A stretch of 20,000 bases of DNA from an uncultured virus (IMG/VR IMGVR_UViG_3300007871_000062) (IMGVR_UViG_3300007871_000062), one strand, 5' to 3'; shown: positions 7,810 through 20,000, counted from the first letter of the stretch. Notes: a model not told the origin generated them from the letters alone. Made by a program: numbers and translations.

Positions 7810-8007
7810 TTAATTGTCCAGTGCCTCTGCTTCTGAAATCATTGCTTCCCACTTAGCTTTTTCTGCTTCTTGGATTGCAATATCATCCTCACACATTCTA
7901 ATAAAGTTTTGTATTTGTTTTATTGTATATTTCCGCACTTTTGGCGTAGTGAATTCAAATACTTCTTTGTCTAGTTTTTTACCATTGTTCCTACACGTGT
8001 TTTGCAT
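7810..8007 (-). CDS. Small helical hypothetical protein downstream of the fibre gene (start uncertain)
   Basis: 65 aa with a coiled-coil-like C-terminus. It fills the gap between two genes and overlaps the upstream gene by 17 nt. Confidence 0.6.
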   Translation of the reverse strand: MQNTCRNNGKKLDKEVFEFTTPKVRKYTIKQIQNFIRMCEDDIAIQEAEKAKWEAMISEAEALDN

Positions 8008-11000
8008 GACTTACATCATACCAATTACTTCCATCACAAACAAATGAAAATCCACCACCATCTATTGTTTCATCTGCCCGGGTATGCATATAAAAATCTT
8101 GATTAATTCCTTCTGTATCTTCAAGGGTTAGTGTATTTGTCCAATCACCGATGTAAGCAACCCGTAAAATTTGTCCAGCAACACCACCTACTAATCCACC
8201 GAGAGTAATATTTCCACTCGTTGTATTAACTAAAAGCGTATTGACTCCTGATACATCAGTATCATCTGCTGACGCCGTAATTGTTGTTGTATTAGAAGCT
8301 ATTGCGCCATTCACATCCAATTTACAACTTGGAGTAAAATCATTGACACCCATATTTCCAGAATCATCTACAGTTATTCTTATATTACCTGCACCGTCTG
8401 CAAGAATAACATGATTTTGTAAATCAATGGCTAATCCAGTTACTCTTGCACCAATGATAGTATTATTATCACCAGTTGTAATACCTCTACCTGTGCCGTA
8501 ACCAATAATTGTATTGTGATCCCCTGTTGTTACATCATAACCTGCACTACTTCCAACACCAACATTCCATTGACCCGTGGTCATACGCATTGCATCATAA
8601 CCAACTGAAGTATTATAATGACCAGTAGATGTATAAAGTGAATAATTTCCAACAGCAACATTATAATCACCGGTAGTATTAGTATAAAGTGCATTAGGTC
8701 CAATACCAATATTATAATCACCATCCAGATTATTAAAAATTGCTCCTCTTCCAATAGCAGTATTTTGATCACCATGTATATTTTCTCTAAGTGCATGTGT
8801 TCCAATAGCAGTGTTATATTTACCATAAGTATTTTTATACATCGCCCATCCACCAATGGCAGTATTTTGACCACCTGAAGTATTAGCATTAAGTGCATCT
8901 CCTCCAACACCAACATTACCATAACCATAAGTATTATCTTCAAGTGCATATCCTCCAAAAGCAACATTACCATAACCACTGAGATTATTCTTAAGTGCAT
9001 TTCCTCCAACTGCAACATTATCATAACCATCTGTATTATTACTAAGTGCATTAGTTCCCATGGCAACATTATAATCACCATACGTATTATGTTGTCCTGC
9101 AGCCATACCGATATACGTATTATTTACACTGTTTTCACCACGTACTTCAAAAGTAGCAGAATCAGAAGAATCTTTTAATATCAATATTGGTGTTGATACA
9201 CCAGTGAGATGTCGTAATATTATGGTATCAAGCCTGCCATCAAAATCATTTTCTGGCGTAAATTTTAGATCAAGAGGGCCTGTTAAATTTGCCTTAAAAG
9301 TAGTATAAAGTGTAGCATTACTACCTCTAGTTAATGGACAATCACACGTTCCAAGAGTTACTGTGACTGTTCCAGCTGTACGATTAGATATTGTAAATTC
9401 TAATTGATATGTCTCACCATCAACTACATTAATAGCTTGAAAAAGTGGATCAACATTTCCAGCAATATGTTGTGCTTTACCCGTATTCCACACCCATTCA
9501 AGTAGAGTATAACTCCAGTCACTTAAATCAATTAAAAAATCCCAATTTACCACTAGATTAGAACCAAAGGCAGCAGTATCTATACCAGTTCCACCTGTGA
9601 GTGAAACACTAAGTGTTCCACCATCAAAATCATATTCACCTGCAGTTATAGTGTGTACAGCATTACTACCATTCCATTGAACACTATAATCTTGTGCTAC
9701 TCCAAATTGTAGAAGCTGACTATCATAAGGTAATTGAATGTATCCTGAAGCATCTACAATTATTCTCTTATTACCTTCACCGTCTGCAAGAATAATATGA
9801 TTTTGTAAATCAGCAGCTAATCCTGTAACTTGTGCTCCAATGATAGTATTATTATCACCAGTTGTAATACCTCTACCTGTGTTATAACCAATAAGTGTAT
9901 TGTAGTCCCCTGTTGTTACATCATAACCCGTAGTATACCCAAATGCAGCATTAAAATCACCAGTAGTCAAACGCAGTGAACTATAACCAATAGCAACATT
10001 ATCCTCACCAGTAGATGAATTAAGTGCCCAATTTCCAATAGCAACATTATGATCACCAGAAATATTATCACTTAATGTACTTCTTCCAATTGCAGTATTA
10101 GCATCACCATCTTCATTACTAAAAAGTGCATTTTTCCCAATAGCAATATGATCATCACCATCTATATTTTCTTTAAGTGAATCAGTTCCAATAGCAACAT
10201 TATATAGACCTGTAGTATTTTCATATAATGACCAATCTCCAATAGCAATATTTTGTCTACCCGTAGTATTAGTATACAATGTATATCCGCCAACACCAAT
10301 ATTACCAGAGCCACAAGTATTATCTTCAAGTGCATGTCTTCCAAGAGCAATATTATTGTAACCTTGAATATTATTTTTAAGTGTATTCATTCCAATAGCA
10401 ACATTATCATAACCATCAGTATTAGTACTAAGTGCATTAATTCCGAGAGCAATATTATAATCGCCCGTAATATTATATTGTCCTGCATTTACACCAATAT
10501 AGATATTATCCACACTGTTTTCACCACGTACTTCGAGAATAGCAGAATCAGTAGAATCTTTTAATATTAATACTGGTGTTGTCGTACCAGAAACATGTTG
10601 TAATTTTATATCATCAAGCCTGCCATCAAAATCAGTATGCGGTGTAAATGTAAGATTAATAGGGCCAGTTAAATTTGCCACAAAAGAAGTATAGTATGTA
10701 CCATTACTAACCGCAGTTAATGAGCAATCACACGTTCCAAAAGTTACTGTGACTGTTCCGGCTGTACGATTGGATATTGTAAATTCCACTGCATATATTT
10801 TACCATCAACTACATTAATAGCTTGAAAAAGTGGATCAACATTCCCAATAATATGTTCTGCTTCACCAGTATTCCACACCCATTCAAGTGGGGTAAAATT
10901 CCAATCGCTTAGATCAATTGAAAAATCCCAATTCGTTACTAGATTAACATCAAAAGGAGGAGTATCTACGCCAGCCCCACCTGTGAGTGAAACATTAAGT

Positions 11001-11911
11001 GTTCCACCATCAAAAACATATTCACCCGCAGTTATAGTGTGTGTAGCATTACTACCATCCCATTGGACACTATAATCTTGTGCTGCTCCAAATTGTAGAA
11101 GCTGACTATCATAAGGTAATTGAATGTATCCTGAAGCATCTACAATTAAAGCAGGATCAGGATCACCATCTGAAGCCACTAATTCAGAGTGTCTGTGAAG
11201 AGCATCTGCAACAGAATTATCCGTAAGAGTATCTAATTGCGCTCCGGTTGCAGAAGTATCATGTGAAGCAATAGTTCCAGCAATCAAATTATCATGATCA
11301 AGAGAACTCTCAAAACTATCGAAAGTGATTTTATTATTATGACCACCGTCACTATCATAAAATGGAATTTGATCAGCGTCAGCTATAACATCTACATTCA
11401 AACTAACGATATCAAAATCACCAGCATTAATCAGATTATTGTGATCAAGAGAACTCTCAAAATTAGCAAAAGTGATTTTATTATTGTGAGTGCCGGTATC
11501 ATCATAAAACGGAAGAGTGTCAGCGTCAGCTATAGTATCTGCATCCAATCCATCGATATTAAAATCACCCGCATTAATCAGATTATTGAGATCAAGTAAT
11601 GATTCAAAATCAGTGAAAGTAATTTTACTATTATTGCTCTCTGAGACGTCAAAAAATGGTATATAATCTGCAGCAACTATCGTTTCAACACCCAATTGAT
11701 TAATTTCAAAAGGAATATTGTCTTGCCAAATTGGTGCATTGGAAGGACCATTTGATACAAGAACCTGTCCTGCTGTTCCTTGTTCAAAAGGAATATAATT
11801 ACGCACTGAAGAATTATCGACTTTAACTAAAAGCGTTCCGGGTAGACCAATAGTATTGATTGATGTGCGTAAATTAAGTTCTTCAAAGACGTAGTCTGAG
11901 AAATTACTCAT
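7991..11911 (-). CDS. Large repetitive fibre/adhesin-like virion protein (~1306 aa); start revised to ATG 11911
   Basis: RBS GGAGA-ATATC-ATG at 11911. Contains three 49-aa acidic repeats, then two 462-aa modules. Each module has a carbohydrate-binding-module-like domain (NLVxNWDFxIDLSDW...) and about 14-aa beta-roll repeats (NxAxGxxALxxNxxG). A GNMGVNDFTPSCKLDVNG fibre motif lies near the C-terminus. Confidence 0.8.
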   Translation of the reverse strand: MSNFSDYVFEELNLRTSINTIGLPGTLLVKVDNSSVRNYIPFEQGTAGQVLVSNGPSNAPIWQDNIPFEINQLGVETIVAADYIPFFDVSESNNSKITFTDFESLLDLNNLINAGDFNIDGLDADTIADADTLPFYDDTGTHNNKITFANFESSLDHNNLINAGDFDIVSLNVDVIADADQIPFYDSDGGHNNKITFDSFESSLDHDNLIAGTIASHDTSATGAQLDTLTDNSVADALHRHSELVASDGDPDPALIVDASGYIQLPYDSQLLQFGAAQDYSVQWDGSNATHTITAGEYVFDGGTLNVSLTGGAGVDTPPFDVNLVTNWDFSIDLSDWNFTPLEWVWNTGEAEHIIGNVDPLFQAINVVDGKIYAVEFTISNRTAGTVTVTFGTCDCSLTAVSNGTYYTSFVANLTGPINLTFTPHTDFDGRLDDIKLQHVSGTTTPVLILKDSTDSAILEVRGENSVDNIYIGVNAGQYNITGDYNIALGINALSTNTDGYDNVAIGMNTLKNNIQGYNNIALGRHALEDNTCGSGNIGVGGYTLYTNTTGRQNIAIGDWSLYENTTGLYNVAIGTDSLKENIDGDDHIAIGKNALFSNEDGDANTAIGRSTLSDNISGDHNVAIGNWALNSSTGEDNVAIGYSSLRLTTGDFNAAFGYTTGYDVTTGDYNTLIGYNTGRGITTGDNNTIIGAQVTGLAADLQNHIILADGEGNKRIIVDASGYIQLPYDSQLLQFGVAQDYSVQWNGSNAVHTITAGEYDFDGGTLSVSLTGGTGIDTAAFGSNLVVNWDFLIDLSDWSYTLLEWVWNTGKAQHIAGNVDPLFQAINVVDGETYQLEFTISNRTAGTVTVTLGTCDCPLTRGSNATLYTTFKANLTGPLDLKFTPENDFDGRLDTIILRHLTGVSTPILILKDSSDSATFEVRGENSVNNTYIGMAAGQHNTYGDYNVAMGTNALSNNTDGYDNVAVGGNALKNNLSGYGNVAFGGYALEDNTYGYGNVGVGGDALNANTSGGQNTAIGGWAMYKNTYGKYNTAIGTHALRENIHGDQNTAIGRGAIFNNLDGDYNIGIGPNALYTNTTGDYNVAVGNYSLYTSTGHYNTSVGYDAMRMTTGQWNVGVGSSAGYDVTTGDHNTIIGYGTGRGITTGDNNTIIGARVTGLAIDLQNHVILADGAGNIRITVDDSGNMGVNDFTPSCKLDVNGAIASNTTTITASADDTDVSGVNTLLVNTTSGNITLGGLVGGVAGQILRVAYIGDWTNTLTLEDTEGINQDFYMHTRADETIDGGGFSFVCDGSNWYDVSHAKHV
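8365..11146 (-). repeat. In-frame tandem duplication with a 1386-bp period (2 copies)
   Basis: ctgaagcatc occurs at 11131 and 9745, and catcta at 9751 and 8365; both offsets are 1386. The peptide IVDASGYIQLPYDSQLLQFG opens both copies. Confidence 0.92.
11270..11710 (-). repeat. Coding tandem repeat, 3 x 147 bp (49 aa)
   Basis: Equivalent anchors at 11294, 11441 and 11588. Peptide unit: FxIxxLxxxxIADADxIPFYDxxxxHNNKITFxxFESSLDHNNLINAGD. Confidence 0.9.
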
Positions 11912-11922
11912 GATATTCTCCA

Positions 11923-11950
11923 TAACCGGGCCCACAATTGGACCCGGTTA
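11923..11950 (-). promoter_or_regulatory. 12-bp intergenic RNA hairpin abutting the fibre-gene RBS
   Basis: Minus strand TAACCGGGTCCA-ATTG-TGGGCCCGGTTA (one G-U pair), followed directly by TGGAGAATATCATG. There is no U-tract on the coding strand. Confidence 0.55.
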
Positions 11951-11960
11951 TTTTCTTCCT

Positions 11961-12689
11961 TTAACCGTTGTCCCCGATGTTACTCCAAACAATGGTGAAC
12001 ACACCAGATACTTTCAAAACATCAGCAGTCGTACCGTGATCAGCATCATCAACGGTGCGGAAATTCAAGTGATATGTCTTACCACTCCCATGACCATCAA
12101 CAACGGCAGCCGTACTGTTAATTCCTTTTTCAATTGCAGCGGATGTTTTGGCAGTCAAAGCACAAACGATAGCACCAATCACATCTTCTTCATCACCACC
12201 ATTTAAATCAAAAGAAGTAGCTTGAGCCGCAGCGGCAGTACCAACACCGATTTCAAAATCAGCGGTAGTCGAGAAACCGGTGCCACCACCAGTAACTGCC
12301 TCTAATTTACCTAATGGAAATTGAATATGTACACCATGAACAAGAATATGGCCATCGGGAAAAGTGTAAAGAGGTTGAGTTCCCCACGCACCATCAGTGG
12401 CAGGTACGGTACCGTCTGTTGACACCATCTCCATTTCAGTAAAAGTAAAGACGGTCTTATGAAGAGCACCGTCACCTTTTTCAGTAACTACCATTCCTGT
12501 TTTTGTCGCTGCAGTACCAACAGTGTGAAGAGTGTCGTTATCGCGACCCGCATTATTGTCATCTACTCTAGTTTGTAGAGTAGCTACTTGATCAAATAGT
12601 GTATAATAATCATCTGCATTCGGTCCCTTTTGAGGAGCATCATCACTGTCACGATTCAGGGAGTCTCCGTCCCAAATTGTTAGAGTCAT
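11961..12689 (-). CDS. Putative capsid decoration/structural protein, paralogue B; start revised to ATG 12689
   Basis: TAATG overlap with the upstream paralogue gives 242 aa (MTLTIWDG...). Gly/Ala/Thr/Asp-rich and aligns end-to-end with 12689-13411. Confidence 0.65.
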   Translation of the reverse strand: MTLTIWDGDSLNRDSDDAPQKGPNADDYYTLFDQVATLQTRVDDNNAGRDNDTLHTVGTAATKTGMVVTEKGDGALHKTVFTFTEMEMVSTDGTVPATDGAWGTQPLYTFPDGHILVHGVHIQFPLGKLEAVTGGGTGFSTTADFEIGVGTAAAAQATSFDLNGGDEEDVIGAIVCALTAKTSAAIEKGINSTAAVVDGHGSGKTYHLNFRTVDDADHGTTADVLKVSGVFTIVWSNIGDNG

Positions 12690-13411
12690 TAGTCGTCCCC
12701 CAAGGCAGTCCAAACAACCGTAAGAACACCACTAACCGTAAGAATATCAGCAACCGCACCATGATCAGCATCATCGAGAGTACGGAAATTCAGATTCAAT
12801 GTCTTAGCGGCGGCTGTACCATCAAATGCTACAGCTGTTCCACAAGCCGCTGACTCAATTGCATCAGATGTCTTTGAAGTCAAATTTACGTCCAAAGCAG
12901 TAACAATATCTTCTTGGGTTGCGTTATTAAGACCATATCCTGTCCACTGAGCCGAGGCCACTGTCCCTACACCGAGTTCAAAATCAGCAGTATCAGAAAA
13001 ACCAGTGCCACCACCGGTAGTAGCAACTATAAGACCTAGTGGAAATTGAGCGTGTGATCCAAGAAAAAGAATATGACCTACAGGAAAGGTGTAGAGAAGT
13101 TGTGTTCCCCAAGCACCATCAGTCCCCGCCGTTGTACCATCTTTGGATGCCATCGACATTCCATCAAAAGTAAAGACGGTTTTATGAACAGCGCCACTAC
13201 CTTTTTCTACAACTGTCAAACCAGTTTTGGTCGCAACCGCACCCGGAGCATCAAGAGTATCGTCATCACGACCAGTATTATTGGCATTTACTCGGGTTTG
13301 TGCGGCTGACACTTCTGAAATTACACGATTCCAATCACGCCAATCAGGAGACTTTCGCTGATTTGCAGTACGATTATCAGAAGCTCCAGTCCAAATTGAA
13401 GTAGGATACAT
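12689..13411 (-). CDS. Putative capsid decoration/structural protein, paralogue A
   Basis: 240 aa, directly after the portal. Shares HKTVFTF, TDGAWGTQ.LYTFP.GHIL, TGGGTGFS.TADFE.GVGT and LNFRT.DDADHG with the next gene. Confidence 0.65.
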   Translation of the reverse strand: MYPTSIWTGASDNRTANQRKSPDWRDWNRVISEVSAAQTRVNANNTGRDDDTLDAPGAVATKTGLTVVEKGSGAVHKTVFTFDGMSMASKDGTTAGTDGAWGTQLLYTFPVGHILFLGSHAQFPLGLIVATTGGGTGFSDTADFELGVGTVASAQWTGYGLNNATQEDIVTALDVNLTSKTSDAIESAACGTAVAFDGTAAAKTLNLNFRTLDDADHGAVADILTVSGVLTVVWTALGDD

Positions 13412-13413
13412 CT

Positions 13414-15033
13414 TTATTCCTTTTTATCGGGGTCTTGAGACGCTTGTTTTTCTGCTTTAGCAGATGTATTATTGACGATTGTATCAGTAAGAGTATCATG
13501 TGTTTGCGACTCTTGAATTCTTTTTAATCGCTTCGCATGATCTTCTTCTGCTTTCTTTGGTTCATCATGGTTATAACCACGAGCAAGTGAAGCAGTCTCT
13601 AATGAGACAATACCTTTTTCTACATCGGCATGAATTGTTTCAGCGTCAGCAGTCATGTAATTAGCATTTTCAATCTCTCTTATCATGGTATCTAAATCTT
13701 TAACAGATACTCTTGATCCTAAAAGCATTCTCACAATTTCTTTATTCACTTCTTTTTGATAACGTTTCGAGGGAACAACAGATATTAATTTGTCTAGGCG
13801 CTCCGCCTCTTCCATTCTTTGAAGATCTGTTTTTAGGCCATAACGCTCAGGATAATTAATAGTGACGGTTTCTTGTTCATTTTCATACTGATGAAAAAGG
13901 TTAGCAATTTGTTGTTCGCCTTTTTCTAATATCAAACCTAAGAAGCTAAGACCACTTTCTAAGCCTCTTTCATCAAATTGTTTTGCTTCAGCGGATGCAA
14001 ATTTCGGCCTAATACTACTCAAAGCTAAATTAATAAGAGAACGAATATCTTCTTTTAGTTGTTTTTGTTTTTCTATTGATGCAATAATTGGTTCTGAACT
14101 TGGATGTATAAAAGATGGACTGTCTAATCCTTTGGCATAACGCCTACCTTGAATATTACCAACTTCTATCTGATCATCCTCATTATTTTCAGGATTATCT
14201 TTAAGATGTGAACTATCAAATTTACCGCTGTATTGCTCGACGTAAAATGGAAAATTAGCTTTCAAAGCATAAGAAATGTCACTTGATTCCAAATTCAATA
14301 ATGCAATTTGATGATTTGCAACATCTTTTAATAGTGAGCGATCCAATTCAAATAGAACAAAGGGTATTTTGTCAATTTCTAGTAACATTTCTGGTCCTAT
14401 CTTTTTATCATTTTCATCAAGATATTGTAAAGAAACACCATCGTCTCTTTTTTGAAAAAGACGATATCGCGTCTTTATCTCTTCCGGTAAGTTATATTTA
14501 TCATATTCATAGTAAGTTTCTTCTAACAATAATGTTTCAAAATCAACATTATTGTTATCTTCAGTATAGACCCAATTTTTTATTTCTTCGGCTGTATAAA
14601 TATAAATATAAGGGTGTGTATTTTCTGCTTCTTGTTTTGTTGATCCAATAAAAGCCGGCATATCCACAAATACGCCAACCTTGCCCATGAATAGTAATTC
14701 TGACAATACTTCATGGCCAATAAAATGATTCATTGTAGCGCCTTTCAAATCAACGCCGCCATATGCGCCATTAACAACATCTTGAAAAACTGACGATCCA
14801 CCTTTTCGTGTTATATCCGCCATTCTTTGATAAATACTATTACGAATATCAATCAAAGCAGCACTTGCAAAACCCGGTATAGGTGTGATTTTTTTGCGAT
14901 CTATAAAATCATCAGCGTCTTCACGTGTGCTAAATTTAACAAGATATTGATCAATAAAATCATTCCCACCATTTTTAATATAACGATATTTTCGCCATGC
15001 ATTGGGTGTATAATCTGGATGCACTGAAATCAT
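13414..15033 (-). CDS. Portal protein
   Basis: 539 aa, immediately after the large terminase (ATGA overlap). HPDY...W, RE....F..R, G.VGVFVDMP, PY...YTAEEI.NW and IPFV motifs are typical of DUF4055/SPP1-like portals. Confidence 0.88.
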   Translation of the reverse strand: MISVHPDYTPNAWRKYRYIKNGGNDFIDQYLVKFSTREDADDFIDRKKITPIPGFASAALIDIRNSIYQRMADITRKGGSSVFQDVVNGAYGGVDLKGATMNHFIGHEVLSELLFMGKVGVFVDMPAFIGSTKQEAENTHPYIYIYTAEEIKNWVYTEDNNNVDFETLLLEETYYEYDKYNLPEEIKTRYRLFQKRDDGVSLQYLDENDKKIGPEMLLEIDKIPFVLFELDRSLLKDVANHQIALLNLESSDISYALKANFPFYVEQYSGKFDSSHLKDNPENNEDDQIEVGNIQGRRYAKGLDSPSFIHPSSEPIIASIEKQKQLKEDIRSLINLALSSIRPKFASAEAKQFDERGLESGLSFLGLILEKGEQQIANLFHQYENEQETVTINYPERYGLKTDLQRMEEAERLDKLISVVPSKRYQKEVNKEIVRMLLGSRVSVKDLDTMIREIENANYMTADAETIHADVEKGIVSLETASLARGYNHDEPKKAEEDHAKRLKRIQESQTHDTLTDTIVNNTSAKAEKQASQDPDKKE

Positions 15034-16655
15034 AAGAAACTCCGGATATTTTCATTTGTTGTTAGACTGGCGGCACATGGTAAAGCAATTTCACTGTAAC
15101 AACGTGCGTGTGCAGCGTGATCAGCACCATCGCCAATAGTAATATAGCGGCCTACTGGATTACCACTTTGATCTTTTTCGTAACGTCGTACTAATTTTTT
15201 AATATGATCTTGATACTCTAGAGAGATATTTTGTGGAAGTGAAATTGTTTGATTGTGAAATCTATTCAATGCTACATCCAACCAAGATGTTCTGTCTACA
15301 CTCAATTCGTGTGAATTGTCATCTTGATTGATATTTATCATTTTACCACGAACACCAGTGCTATAGAAACACAATTTCACGTGGCCCCAAAAGTCACACG
15401 CAAACTCATAAGCCAATCGTCTTTCAGGTTGTGCATCAATAACACAAAACATTACTTGATATTGTTTCATTAGTTGACCAAGTTCATGAAAGTCTATTAC
15501 TTTACCTTCTTTAAGAACTGTAGCTTTGGCATTCATATTAATGTCATTACCAAGTTTGCATTGCCACGATGTTATTTCGTAGTGTAACCAACGACCTTGA
15601 TCGACACCCATTGTAATTATATTACCTTTCTCACCGGGTTTAATACATTTTCGAATTTCAAGATCAGTAACTTGCGCACCCTCTGGTACATGCGGCATAC
15701 CTAATCTACTATTGTAAAACTCTTGTTCCTCGACTTTATCAACCAGTGAAGCGAGGTATTTTGTTGCTAATTGATGTGGTTCAATAGTGTAAGAATAGAG
15801 TTGATTAACATAGAATCCTCTTTTACTTGATTGATTTGTGGATTCCCAATAACCAGTTTTTAACCACTCCGGTTTGGCTTTATGAGATAATTTTTTCTTA
15901 CATTCTTTACAAATAAGGTAAGAATTTTCGATTTTAGGATCAAGACGATCCTCCGCAGTAATAACAAGACATTCAGGGAAAATGAGTTCTGTTAGTTTGC
16001 CACAATTAGGACATTTAAAGATAAAATGATCTTGCGTGGATAAAAGAAACTCTTTATTTATACCATGATTTGGTGCAGTGGGTGTTGAAATTTTCCAAAT
16101 TTGCCAATCAATTTGTCCATCCACTCTGGATTCACCAAGCGTGACATTAGGTTGATTCATTTCATCCAATTCATCAAAGATTAAAAGACTCACAGGTAGA
16201 CCTTTCATACCACCGCGACTATTACTGCCTCTGATATAGAGATTTGCTGAACCTGAACGTTTGTGCCCAACATTTTTTACGTCACTGTAAATATTCTTGA
16301 GATGTTGTGATAAATCAAGAGCAGCATCGAAACGAGCTGCAGAGAAATCAGAGGCATCAGGTGTTTTAGATGGTAAGACATACAAGACACTTTGTCTTTT
16401 GATGTCCATCTTGAAGAAAGCAATATTGAGCATTGTTTCTGTATAACCCATTTGTGCGGATTTCTGACCAATACAAAACGGTTCGGTTGCATTATGCATA
16501 TCCAATGTCCATGGATGATATTTCGGTGTCCACAGACCGGGAAACGGTGGGCCCATCATCCTATAAGATGATGCCCATTTGGAGCAAGAAGTAATGGCTT
16601 TACGCCGAAGACCGCTTACTAAAGTGTCAGTGAATACTTGTTGTAATTTATGCAT
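15030..16655 (-). CDS. terL: Terminase large subunit, lambda GpA family
   Basis: Walker A-type KSAQMGYTE, Walker B LLIFDELDEM, coupling motif ISTPT, zinc ribbon CPNCG...CKEC, nuclease motif MGVDQG and C-terminal DHAAHARCY. Confidence 0.95.
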   Translation of the reverse strand: MHKLQQVFTDTLVSGLRRKAITSCSKWASSYRMMGPPFPGLWTPKYHPWTLDMHNATEPFCIGQKSAQMGYTETMLNIAFFKMDIKRQSVLYVLPSKTPDASDFSAARFDAALDLSQHLKNIYSDVKNVGHKRSGSANLYIRGSNSRGGMKGLPVSLLIFDELDEMNQPNVTLGESRVDGQIDWQIWKISTPTAPNHGINKEFLLSTQDHFIFKCPNCGKLTELIFPECLVITAEDRLDPKIENSYLICKECKKKLSHKAKPEWLKTGYWESTNQSSKRGFYVNQLYSYTIEPHQLATKYLASLVDKVEEQEFYNSRLGMPHVPEGAQVTDLEIRKCIKPGEKGNIITMGVDQGRWLHYEITSWQCKLGNDINMNAKATVLKEGKVIDFHELGQLMKQYQVMFCVIDAQPERRLAYEFACDFWGHVKLCFYSTGVRGKMININQDDNSHELSVDRTSWLDVALNRFHNQTISLPQNISLEYQDHIKKLVRRYEKDQSGNPVGRYITIGDGADHAAHARCYSEIALPCAASLTTNENIRSFL

Positions 16656-16661
16656 CCCGAC

Positions 16662-16940
16662 TTACAGTGGGCTACTCTTGGGATCATGAAGCGTTTCATT
16701 TTCTAACTCCTTGAAAAGGTACTCTATGAGAAGCATACCAGGAACTGATAAAGTAACTAAAGAAAACCAAGTGATTATAAAACTATAAAAGGAAGATTGA
16801 TTAAGAGCTATGAAGAAAGCGAGATAATGAGCAAAACAGTAAGAACATTTTAGGACATGCCATTTCTGAATAGGTCTGAAAAGTACACTTCTACAGACTG
16901 TTTCAGAAATTGTTGATATTGCTAAGGCTTCTAAGATCAT
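16662..16940 (-). CDS. Small membrane protein with CxxC (DUF1360-like); start revised to ATG 16940
   Basis: TAATG overlap with the upstream small ORF gives 92 aa. LKCSYCFAHYLA sits among hydrophobic helices. Confidence 0.6.
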   Translation of the reverse strand: MILEALAISTISETVCRSVLFRPIQKWHVLKCSYCFAHYLAFFIALNQSSFYSFIITWFSLVTLSVPGMLLIEYLFKELENETLHDPKSSPL

Positions 16941-17098
16941 TAGAATTTCTTTAGTGTTTTCCATAGGTTACATTGTCTTCGAGCACGTGTCGACAAATTC
17001 TTTTGTGCACAATATTGTGCGATCGTCATACCTTTGGCTTTTGCTTTTCTAGTTAAAGCACCAGGTCTTTTGATTGCTCCTTTAATCCATTTCTTCAT
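16940..17098 (-). CDS. Small highly basic phage protein (52 aa; not in ORF track)
   Basis: Hand translation: MKKWIKGAIKRPGALTRKAKAKGMTIAQYCAQKNLSTRARRQCNLWKTLKKF*. It fills the intergenic gap and its stop couples to the next ATG. The KWI..AIK.PGAL pattern is one I recognise from small phage proteins. Confidence 0.8.
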   Translation of the reverse strand: MKKWIKGAIKRPGALTRKAKAKGMTIAQYCAQKNLSTRARRQCNLWKTLKKF

Positions 17099-17336
17099 CA
17101 ATTGCCTCACGATACTGTTCTTTGGTTCTTGTGCCTATTACTTTCTTTTTATTTATTAATAAGGTTGGTAATTTTGTGATATTGTGCTTTTTGAATCGTT
17201 TATCTGGATGATCAACGATTTCAATATCATAACCCTCTAACATCAAAAGGAGAATACTTGGTTTTGCTTCCTTGCAAGCTATGCACCACTCCGCCGTAAA
17301 AAAGAGAATCAGAAGAAGTAATGTTGTTTTTACCAT
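17082..17336 (-). CDS. Minimal thioredoxin-fold protein
   Basis: 84 aa. FFTAEWCIACK matches the FxAxWCxxC active site, and ITKLPTLLI matches the cis-Pro loop. Confidence 0.85.
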   Translation of the reverse strand: MVKTTLLLLILFFTAEWCIACKEAKPSILLLMLEGYDIEIVDHPDKRFKKHNITKLPTLLINKKKVIGTRTKEQYREAIDEEMD

Positions 17337-18220
17337 AAGATGTACTTCCTCTCGGGTATTGGGAAACCTTTATAATTACTAAGGGCGTACGCTTCATTTC
17401 TCTTTACGTGGTAGTCAATATATCTGGCGTCAATCCACACACTACCATCTGGTTGATTATGGCGTTTTGGGCCGGAAGCCCACTTACCGTGTGAATTTAG
17501 TAGACATACTCCGGGTCTACGACCATCATCAACACCAGCAATCAACCAACCGTGCGGCCATTTGCCCTTGGGTTTGATGAAACCGTCTTTGTCTCGTTGA
17601 CTATTTTCTGCGCCCATTGTTGAACAAAATAGAACAGGATGGCCACTTGCCACAGCATCTCTAATTTCTGAATAACTATTCAAAGAAGAATAATCAAGAA
17701 GAGGGTGAAGTTTTGCGTAATCCAAAAGAAATTGTGGAAGAGGATTACGGTTTAACTCTATACAAGTTTGTCTTGAATAAGGGGTAAGATCAATAGAGTC
17801 GTACTTTTGTCTTAGAAGATTGCCATACGTTTGAAGATATTTGGTAGCCCACCATCCACGCATTCCATTTCTCGCAAATTCATGGGGAATATTATTCCTG
17901 CCACCTGAATAAATTGCATCACAAGATGATTTTGTAATCCATTTTTCTGCTTTGCCTTGTGCTATTTGTACAGTGGAAAGAATATCCATCCCTGCACCGG
18001 TAGCTTGAGCTATACAATCAGCATATTTTTGACGGTGTGGTTCCCACTCTTTTCCGGTTACTTTTTCCCAAGGCTTCCATAGTAAAGCGACTTTATTTTG
18101 TCCAAAGGATCTTAGGTGTTTCGTTTTATAATCAGGTTGAGCGTAACAAGGTATCCATCCGTACTCTCTCTTCGGGAAGAGAGAGAGCATAGCGATTGTT
18201 AGAAAGTCACGTCTTAACAT
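17330..18220 (-). CDS. Papain-like (C1 family) cysteine peptidase; start revised to ATG 18220
   Basis: Catalytic residues are in papain order: Q..C in RQKYADCIAQ, H in WPHGWLIAG, N in LLNSHG. GHPVLF strand present. The N-terminus MLRRDFLTIAMLSLF resembles a twin-arginine motif. Confidence 0.8.
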   Translation of the reverse strand: MLRRDFLTIAMLSLFPKREYGWIPCYAQPDYKTKHLRSFGQNKVALLWKPWEKVTGKEWEPHRQKYADCIAQATGAGMDILSTVQIAQGKAEKWITKSSCDAIYSGGRNNIPHEFARNGMRGWWATKYLQTYGNLLRQKYDSIDLTPYSRQTCIELNRNPLPQFLLDYAKLHPLLDYSSLNSYSEIRDAVASGHPVLFCSTMGAENSQRDKDGFIKPKGKWPHGWLIAGVDDGRRPGVCLLNSHGKWASGPKRHNQPDGSVWIDARYIDYHVKRNEAYALSNYKGFPIPERKYILW

Positions 18221-18918
18221 GGTTTCAGGGCTGCTGCAATTTTGAGCCAAAGAGCAACATGCTCTTCCAGGGACTTACCTTGATAATTTTTCTGAAGATA
18301 TTCAGAGAAAGATATAAGGAACGATTTGTACTGATCTAAATTAACACCTAGGACTGCACGGTTTGCTACTGCGGTCATCTTAATTAGGGTTTCAATATCT
18401 TTGGCTTTAGCGGACTCTTCAAAAGAACGACTCAAAGCCTCTAGCAACAAGGGATTAGAGTTTTTTGGAAGCCAACTTCTTATTAAGGTGGTGAATTTAT
18501 CGGATATTGGTTGACCTTCCACTCTAAGGGAATGAATAATGCAACTTACAGCATTCTCCTTAGCGGCAGCAACGAAAAAGATGTAATCCCCATTTTCACT
18601 GCTTGAGAAAAAGGCTCTTTTACCATTCTCAATAACAACAAAATTAAGAGATTCAGGCTTTATTTTCCATTCAAATGATGCAGCGGAAGATGCAGAAGCA
18701 TCCAAAGTGACTAGCTCACCGATTTTACAAACATTCGGTGCCACCAAAGAAAGAATTACTTTTTCTTCTTCTTCTTCTTCTTCAAAGGTGATAGTTACTT
18801 CCTCAGGAACAATTACTTTCCCAGGAACTTCCTTTTCTTCAAAAGAAAGGAGAGAGAAAAAAACAAAAATAATAATGGCGAGAACAAAAATAGTGATGGG
18901 GTAGATGTTCTTTTTCAT
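18214..18918 (-). CDS. N-terminally membrane-anchored protein with PKD/Ig-like domain
   Basis: Basic N-terminus plus a ~20-aa hydrophobic helix, a poly-Glu linker, then APNVCKIGELVTLDASAS...FEW...GDYIFFV (PKD-like) and a helical C-terminal domain. Confidence 0.65.
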   Translation of the reverse strand: MKKNIYPITIFVLAIIIFVFFSLLSFEEKEVPGKVIVPEEVTITFEEEEEEEKVILSLVAPNVCKIGELVTLDASASSAASFEWKIKPESLNFVVIENGKRAFFSSSENGDYIFFVAAAKENAVSCIIHSLRVEGQPISDKFTTLIRSWLPKNSNPLLLEALSRSFEESAKAKDIETLIKMTAVANRAVLGVNLDQYKSFLISFSEYLQKNYQGKSLEEHVALWLKIAAALKPC

Positions 18919-19094
18919 TCTACACCTTCAGCAGTGATAAGTCTGAGCCCGCAATTGATAAAACCGATGATTGCAAGAACAGGGCCACTATGGTCAGCCA
19001 TGATCCATTGCTCATTAGAGACAACAACCAAAAGACCAGCGGCAAGAGTCAGCAAATTAACAATCATCGTCTTGCTTTTGTACCACTTTTTCAT
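18915..19094 (-). CDS. Holin-like two-TM protein (59 aa; not in ORF track)
   Basis: Hand translation: MKKWYKSKTMIVNLLTLAAGLLVVVSNEQWIMADHSGPVLAIIGFINCGLRLITAEGVE*. Coupled at both ends (TAATG, ATGA). The KxWYxSKT...NxxLRxxT pattern is typical of small phage holin-like proteins. Confidence 0.75.
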   Translation of the reverse strand: MKKWYKSKTMIVNLLTLAAGLLVVVSNEQWIMADHSGPVLAIIGFINCGLRLITAEGVE

Positions 19095-19889: not shown

Positions 19890-20000
19890 CTTGTGTCTTG
19901 TGTCTTGTGTCTTGTGTCTTGTGTCTTGTGTCTTGTGTCTTGTGTCTTGTGTCTTGTGTCTTGTGTCTTGTGTCTTGTGTCTTGTGTCTTGTGTCTTGTG
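19890..20000 (+). repeat. Perfect 7-bp tandem array (CTTGTGT)n, at least 15 complete copies, running off the window
   Basis: Directly visible, with no mismatches from 19890 to 20000. Confidence 0.97.

Follow-up and report, generated by a model that had tools for sequence, protein, structure and literature searches.

Between the terminase genes terS and terL of an uncultured virus (IMG/VR IMGVR_UViG_3300007871_000062), six open reading frames (ORFs), here termed genes A to F, form a tightly coupled cassette. The analysis is based on a stretch of 20,000 nucleotides from this virus, hereafter the window, in which all coordinates are counted and in which the six genes as well as both terminase genes reside on the minus strand (Table 1). 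They encode, in order, a holin-like membrane protein, a membrane anchor, a cysteine peptidase, a thioredoxin, a basic peptide and a membrane protein featuring a CxxC motif. As already recognized in a first-pass annotation of the DNA, this block splits the terminase pair, and each ORF overlaps the gene next to it, by 1 (terS-A), 4 (A-B), 7 (B-C), 7 (C-D), 17 (D-E) and 25 bases (E-F), whereas F and terL are separated by a gap of 6 bases. The peptidase gene had been annotated with an RRDFL N-terminus; its start was corrected to the ATG at 18220, which yields a protein of 296 residues beginning with MLRRDFL.

All six of the closest non-self loci (L002-L007) share the gene order terS, A, B, C, thioredoxin, F, terL, portal, with additional genes interspersed in L002, L004 and L005, and because of this recurrence the arrangement cannot be attributed to chance. 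A wider scan found 281 loci, of which 80 were kept and, together with the first nine, gave 72 distinct peptidases. Their loci constitute two groups, namely terminase-linked phages, to which the present one belongs, and large phages that encode ribonucleotide reductase and PhoH. In the latter, the peptidase is preceded by two small membrane genes and a short anchor, whose resemblance to the B helical domain has an hhalign probability of 59 (E 9e-5). An anchor gene of either type lies no more than 1.5 kb upstream of the peptidase in 58 of the 61 viral loci with room for it. Downstream, a thioredoxin is encoded in 31 of 66 loci according to a strict pattern, CGPC being the commonest active-site motif; the strict pattern was preferred since a looser thioredoxin cluster, present in 57 of 72 loci, includes some unrelated and zinc-finger-only proteins. 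The family of gene A was seen in 13 of the 72 loci. Hence, of the six genes proposed to co-occur, five (A, B, C, D and F) do so in every one of the closest relatives, but the basic peptide E is absent from all six cassettes. Gene E, occurring in 6 of the 72 loci at varying places and represented by a homologue at the end of the tail genes in G003, a close relative of 85 kb rated 100% complete, was dropped as a module member. The cassette is nonetheless real and conserved, its core being anchor plus peptidase, usually accompanied by thioredoxin and small membrane proteins. A tblastn search with two queries against 50,697 deposited phages returned no match. In L005, two extra cassette genes (11469-11999 and 12365-12664), the first of which lacks a Pfam match, each encode an N-terminal membrane helix and an apparent coiled coil and are reminiscent of inner-membrane spanins.

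The peptidase encoded by gene C has no match in Pfam, PHROGs or NCBIfam; PF00112 was not reached even at an E value of 0.1, only 2 of 60 relatives scanned narrowly passed this model, and sequence searches of the PDB returned nothing real. The fold was assigned by means of an AlphaFold2 model (predicted local distance difference test, pLDDT, 91), whose best structural match is xylellain with a Z score of 22.5 and a root-mean-square deviation of 3.2 over 237 aligned residues. C1A chains scored between 17 and 22.5 and Cwp84 17.7, while PeiR and a C39-like chain reached 12.0 and 11.1, respectively. Moreover, 41 close homologues all retain Gln64, Cys69, His223 and Asn242, which form the catalytic set in its proper order (alignments and models start at residue 2, so that numbering therein is one lower than in the full-length protein), and the catalytic Cys and His are invariant in 99 distant homologues as well. 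By its modelled fold and catalytic set, gene C is a member of papain family C1A with predicted proteolytic activity, which bears out the earlier notion of a papain-like Cys peptidase and places it in C1A rather than with C39 or NlpC/P60. The family is large, encompassing 1,049 clusters at 50% identity, and is devoid of a Pfam model of its own.

Among the best 150 relatives of gene C, 33 are interrupted by inteins, with 25 insertion sites just before the catalytic Cys, 7 just after the catalytic His and 3 at other active-site positions; two peptidases, P0103 and P0149, carry both an intein at the catalytic Cys and one after the catalytic His. Inteins gather in active sites that are needed, and because they cluster at this one, the sequences suggest that peptidase activity is under selection. 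It is unusual for a protease, here a putatively periplasmic one, to harbour inteins at five different positions of the active site. Neither these interruptions nor the prophage-free chromosomal copies discussed below had been mentioned in the first-pass annotation.

With respect to export, an RR motif (RRxFL) is found in 42 of 46 close homologues of gene C. An uncharged stretch of at least 13 residues, a rule of thumb from TatFind that served as criterion for a twin-arginine translocation (Tat) signal, follows the motif in 28 of these 42, and PF10518 was detected in 3 of 60 relatives. The RR motif is featured by 43 of 147 distant representatives, a hydrophobic signal or helix by 18, and neither by 86. 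No signal was found in 43 of the 66 viral copies with an intact start, and the presence of a signal follows the type of anchor: peptidases were scored RR in 19 of the 27 viral loci with a PKD-type anchor, and all 29 from loci with a short anchor are without a signal. By analogy, we infer that this split may resemble the one between exported and holin-released endolysins.

The partner protein B comprises a membrane helix (residues 8-26), a PKD/Ig domain (about 49-137) and a helical domain (about 141-231), as modelled by AlphaFold2 with a pLDDT of 88.6. Its best PKD match is that of collagenase G (E 1.4e-4), in agreement with the initial description of a membrane-anchored PKD-like protein; the C-terminal helical domain and the docking of the peptidase had not been mentioned there. 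An Atlas search with the helical domain gave no usable match. A complex model of B and C scored 0.65, compared to 0.00 for the best control, a level that is reached by 116 of 157 solved complexes and by 2 of 215 mismatched pairs, these counts being only roughly valid for the present alignments. Model runs share at least 88% of contacts with a partner pLDDT of at least 81, and place the last residues of C (287-295) against B helices 175-214. The model thus supports B-C binding as a prediction.

The core of the predicted interface is formed by the tail YILW of C, in which Tyr and Trp are each conserved in 39 of 41 homologues. In 25 selected terminase-linked loci, a C-terminal Tyr-x-[LIVF]-[WFY], a motif defined after inspecting these very ends, terminates 23 of the 25 peptidases and 8 of the 25 thioredoxins next to them, against 1 among the remaining 357 ORFs. 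Across whole records, the tag occurs on the peptidase only among 157 ORFs of G003, and on peptidase and thioredoxin only among 155 ORFs of G983; the thioredoxin of the present window is without it. Four chromosomal copies that lack an anchor, three from the Bacteroidota group and one from Novosphingobium, have a different C-terminal tail. These lone peptidases (L125, L180, L122 and L176) stem from Mucilaginibacter, a Balneolaceae metagenome-assembled genome (MAG), Flexithrix (partial) and Novosphingobium, and were probably transferred singly.

As for the accessory genes, the description of A as holin-like holds insofar as A is a small membrane protein with two hydrophobic stretches adjoining a hydrolase cassette, whereas its match to the holin family is weak and spans 24 residues; 2 of 10 further relatives (best E 4e-5) and one protein in G003 match the same family. 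The thioredoxin assignment of D is confirmed by a score of 25.7 bits against PF00085 (cut-off 23.5) and by the presence of the CxxC and the cis-Pro loop. The hydrophobic N-terminus of D merges into the first strand, and most relatives have a hydrophobic N-terminus. The CxxC of membrane protein F likewise proved genuine, Cys40 and Cys43 being invariant in 15 sequences. F itself has no Pfam match and, as a 15-sequence profile, none in the PDB at E 10; three of its homologues pass PF07098 (DUF1360) with 23.3-27.9 bits (cut-off 21), and DUF1360 clusters are among its Atlas neighbours.

In line with the first-pass annotation, a comparison of the 24 window proteins with Pfam and PHROGs gave no match to a muramidase, amidase or spanin; spanin sequences are known to diverge rapidly. 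The search was extended to 32 related virus records, three of them at least 98% complete and most of them partial. Of the 157 ORFs in G003, 150 were compared with Pfam and PHROGs and gave no wall hydrolase or spanin, A being the sole lysis match. Pfam scans likewise found no wall hydrolase among 138 of 216 ORFs in G963 (98% complete), 105 of 155 in G983 (86%), 39 of 152 in G002 (78%) and 150 of 288 in G971 (100%), whose ORF calls are less sure because of its high G+C content. Six-frame searches for phage lysozyme, Amidase_2, M15_4, GH108 and PG_binding_1 gave nothing over cut-off in the 32 records, apart from which one sub-threshold M15_4 match was seen in G966; the same holds true for SLT in 29 records. 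Amidase_3, GH19, M15_3, M23, PF11860, CHAP and GH25 were without match in the five most complete records, and NlpC/P60 was covered by the ORF scans. As judged from these profile searches, the complete relatives are without a known classical endolysin.

The hosts can be approached via the cellular members of the family. Of 79 loci detected by a motif scan in GTDB genomes, 65 are true members; according to record titles, 42 belong to Planctomycetota, 5 are unclassified and 18 are other, several of the latter apparently being mis-binned, since they are nested in planctomycete or viral clades of the gene C tree (a quick version with 14 rows left out). In profile searches, the family was detected in Planctomycetia (101 of 301 genomes), Gemmataceae (44 of 151), Phycisphaerae (3 of 301), the phylum as a whole (15 of 401) and Bacteroidota (5 of 401, two of these strong), where taxon names derive from the titles of the centre genomes, the centre is included in each count and only some candidates per genome were scored. 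The suspected link to Planctomycetota therefore stands at the level of the family and, more precisely, of the class Planctomycetia. The idea of a core housekeeping gene was dropped, as only 15 of the 401 genomes from the whole phylum matched. In Bremerella cremea and several MAGs the cassette genes lie among prophage-like genes. DUF1501 is typical of planctomycetes, and the 163-kb phage G963 carries two tandem DUF1501 genes (L237, 110-2610) near a long run of sugar-modifying genes. PMC8567305 describes cysteine-rich YTV proteins in the walls of Planctomycetales and reports that peptidoglycan genes are missing from most of them, and the YTV motif is given as exclusive to Planctomycetia in PMC12673574.

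Table 1. Cassette genes, docking tag and flanking terminase genes in the 20,000-nucleotide window.
Feature	Coordinates	Strand	Basis
Putative terminase small subunit (terS, flank), 177 aa	19094..19627	-	position before terL kept in L002-L007; weak match to phrog_3678 (unknown function)
Gene A, two-helix holin-like membrane protein, 59 aa	18915..19094	-	two hydrophobic stretches; phrog_4712 holin, E 0.017
Gene B, anchor with membrane helix, PKD/Ig and predicted helical docking domain, 234 aa	18214..18918	-	AlphaFold2, PKD matches
Gene C, papain-fold cysteine peptidase with N-terminal RRDFL, 296 aa	17330..18220	-	fold and catalytic residues
Predicted YILW docking tag at the C-terminus of the gene C peptidase	17333..17344	-	conservation in homologues, predicted interface, tag statistics
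Gene D, thioredoxin (WCIAC), 84 aa	17082..17336	-	PF00085 over cut-off
Gene E, basic peptide, passenger, 52 aa	16940..17098	-	phrog_20603, E 4e-7
Gene F, DUF1360-like membrane protein with CxxC, 100 aa	16662..16964	-	relatives pass PF07098
Terminase large subunit, gpA type (terL, flank)	15030..16655	-	PF05876, E 1.5e-25; phrog_675

Apart from the cassette, the window contains packaging and structural genes of a tailed phage, comprising the gpA-type terminase, portal, scaffold, P22-like coat and major tail protein; the name terS rests on position, since its only match is weak and to a family of unknown function. Promoter and terminator scans remained near shuffle level (15 versus 9.7 and 3 versus 2.3, respectively). 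A perfect tandem array of the 7-base unit CTTGTGT with at least 15.9 copies is located upstream of terS (19890-20000). Arrays of 7 bases with different sequence lie a few hundred bases ahead of terS in G002 and G004, and elsewhere, near a record end, in G003 and G983; they possibly constitute a packaging or genome-end signal. Directly after the portal, a tandem pair of paralogues (11961-13411; 57% identical, phrog_11997) is encoded, which is also found in L003 and L004. Between portal and head genes, a tail spike-like protein of about 1,306 residues (7991-11911) exhibits a large internal duplication with 68% identity over 487 residues.

The genes and their order, the fold and catalytic residues of the peptidase, the tag, the host-class bias and the lack of known endolysins in the relatives are directly supported. 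As regards export, redox role, timing, substrate and lysis, we infer the following. In a late-operon lysis module, B would reside in the inner membrane, from which its PKD spacer and helical domain would project outward, and C would enter the periplasm by Tat in this lineage and via holin lesions in the signal-less ones, to dock on B through its C-terminal Y-x-hydrophobic-aromatic tail. The thioredoxin, which bears the same tail in some relatives, may keep the catalytic Cys reduced or open disulfides of wall proteins, with F as a possible electron link. The holin-like A would set the timing, and C would cleave wall protein in place of an endolysin. Among single readings, this lysis module, in which a protease acts on hosts whose protein wall is rich in cysteine, ranks as the most likely, albeit tentatively, and a lysis role of some kind for the cassette appears rather likely; the module would probably be an undescribed way of bursting protein-walled bacteria. 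It is favoured because the order is conserved and the same core is present in large phages that form an unrelated group, because of the anchor pairing, the complex score, the shared tag and the lack of a wall hydrolase in relatives, and because of the active-site inteins, the Planctomycetia bias, the YTV walls and the scarcity of peptidoglycan genes. The broader proposal that Planctomycetia phages exit by proteolysing a disulfide-linked protein wall, with a membrane scaffold recruiting protease and thioredoxin via a shared four-residue C-terminal tag, and that hosts kept the module for wall remodelling, is conceivable and more doubtful.

Several observations weigh against a lytic protease module. 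The Tat signal of this gene C copy is short, with 11 uncharged residues, the holin match of A is weak and its family restricted in distribution. For this phage itself, the endolysin scan covers the window, controls were silent for GH108, GH19 and PF11860, and a divergent endolysin could be hidden among unannotated ORFs. G003 and G002 share an ORF of 153-154 residues with a cysteine motif and no family match (L012 16861-17322 and L015 10803-11261); the motif recalls C39 peptidases, and neither Pfam nor PHROGs or NCBIfam gave a match where scanned. Furthermore, the clade of seven to which this window belongs has no cellular member, and therefore the host is deduced from the gene C family as a whole; in the wider clade, the sole genome record, labelled Anaerolinea, is a phage-like contig of 10.8 kb. 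Peptidoglycan components, moreover, were detected in several Planctomycetia species according to PMC12673574.

The main evidence against a purely lytic role is provided by the chromosomal copies. On the complete chromosome of Limnoglobus roseus, B, C and a small exported protein form an operon among housekeeping-type genes, with no phage genes recognizable by eye among the unannotated ORFs within 20 kb. Because such prophage-free operons exist, the B-C pair can act non-lytically. In the Gemmataceae clade, 14 of 27 loci have a third gene in common, one set of flanking genes recurs in 8 and another in 5; these copies may reflect domestication or host origin. The strongest rival, although an unlikely one, is a non-lytic envelope module carried as phage cargo, in which the tethered protease trims proteins at the host surface or in the periplasm, or removes them, for instance to block superinfection. 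It draws further on the frequency of the family in Gemmataceae, on the structural kinship with the surface layer (S-layer) processor Cwp84, and on the position of the block among replication genes in large phages. However, the cassette is coupled here into the packaging operon beside a holin-like gene, complete genomes would be left without any lysis enzyme, and signal-less copies need a holin-like exit to meet the exported anchor.

Another possibility, improbable on balance, is that C is a new peptidoglycan peptidase cutting peptide cross-links, held by B near a thin murein. Some viral proteins with labels such as peptidoglycan-binding, N-acetylmuramidase or Lysin A do contain papain-like domains, the pseudomurein endoisopeptidase PeiR is among the fold matches, and peptidoglycan components have been reported for Planctomycetia. 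Yet the fold is far nearer to C1A (Z 17-22) than to PeiR or C39 (Z 11-12), no peptidoglycan-binding domain was found in the 32 records, and the family is frequent in taxa poor in peptidoglycan genes but seldom found in Phycisphaerae. The near-obligate pairing of the B and C genes and their predicted binding would also suit B as a keeper, which holds C inactive or sequestered until a trigger arrives, similar to an antitoxin or anti-lysin; this is very unlikely, as the predicted contact is limited to the tail of C and spares the catalytic residues, the tag on the thioredoxin suits a scaffold, and the four chromosomal copies without B have a different tail. Least likely of all is a virion-maturation protease, for which the packaging operon and the lack of a prohead protease among the window proteins would speak. 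Against it, P22-like capsids with a separate scaffold, as encoded here, do not require a protease, C is equipped for export in many relatives and has a membrane anchor as its partner, and the large phage G963 has a Clp-type protease of its own.

To our knowledge, it is an open question how phages exit from hosts that possess hardly any or no peptidoglycan, and there is continuing debate over what gives the planctomycete wall its cohesion. Both questions become testable because the module names a candidate enzyme, its anchor, a four-residue tag and cultured carriers, namely Bremerella cremea, Kolteria novifilia and Limnoglobus roseus. In addition, the gene C family could serve as a metagenome marker of Planctomycetia viruses. 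Literature searches returned no title or abstract on such a module, and the terms planctomyc, papain and cysteine do not occur in PMC12596118. The acquisition of xylellain-type C1A peptidases by tailed phages is described in PMC10380794, whose supplement may list family members.

Compared with known systems, gene C shares with bacterial xylellain (C1A; PDB 3ois) the fold including the N-terminal segment and the catalytic set, but at 18% identity, and additionally possesses the RR signal, the docking tail and a partner anchor. PeiR (PDB 8z4h) belongs to another fold branch and cuts pseudomurein peptide links in archaea; pseudomurein endoisopeptidases nonetheless constitute cysteine-protease lytic enzymes directed against an unusual wall. 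Cwp84 of Clostridioides difficile (PDB 4ci7), an envelope-held cysteine protease that acts on a protein layer and processes the S-layer, likewise has the papain fold; it carries wall-binding and lectin domains of its own, whereas the present peptidase is virus-encoded, with the anchor supplied as a second, membrane-bound protein. DsbG and DsbC protect single-cysteine periplasmic enzymes, and VKOR-thioredoxin pairs are known as well; the likeness lies in a putatively exported thioredoxin fold next to a presumably periplasmic cysteine enzyme and in a membrane protein with a CPYC-like motif, but F has a single CxxC and no match among solved structures, so that this is to be taken as an analogy. 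The Lambda-type cassette, finally, consists of holin, endolysin and spanin, and resembles the present one as a late-operon block by the terminase genes that combines a small two-helix membrane protein with a hydrolase, hydrolases with and without export signals occurring in both. In contrast, the hydrolase here is a papain-type protease, no peptidoglycan hydrolase was matched in the window and the related records and no spanin in the window and G003, and a predicted docking anchor, a thioredoxin and a CxxC membrane protein are added.

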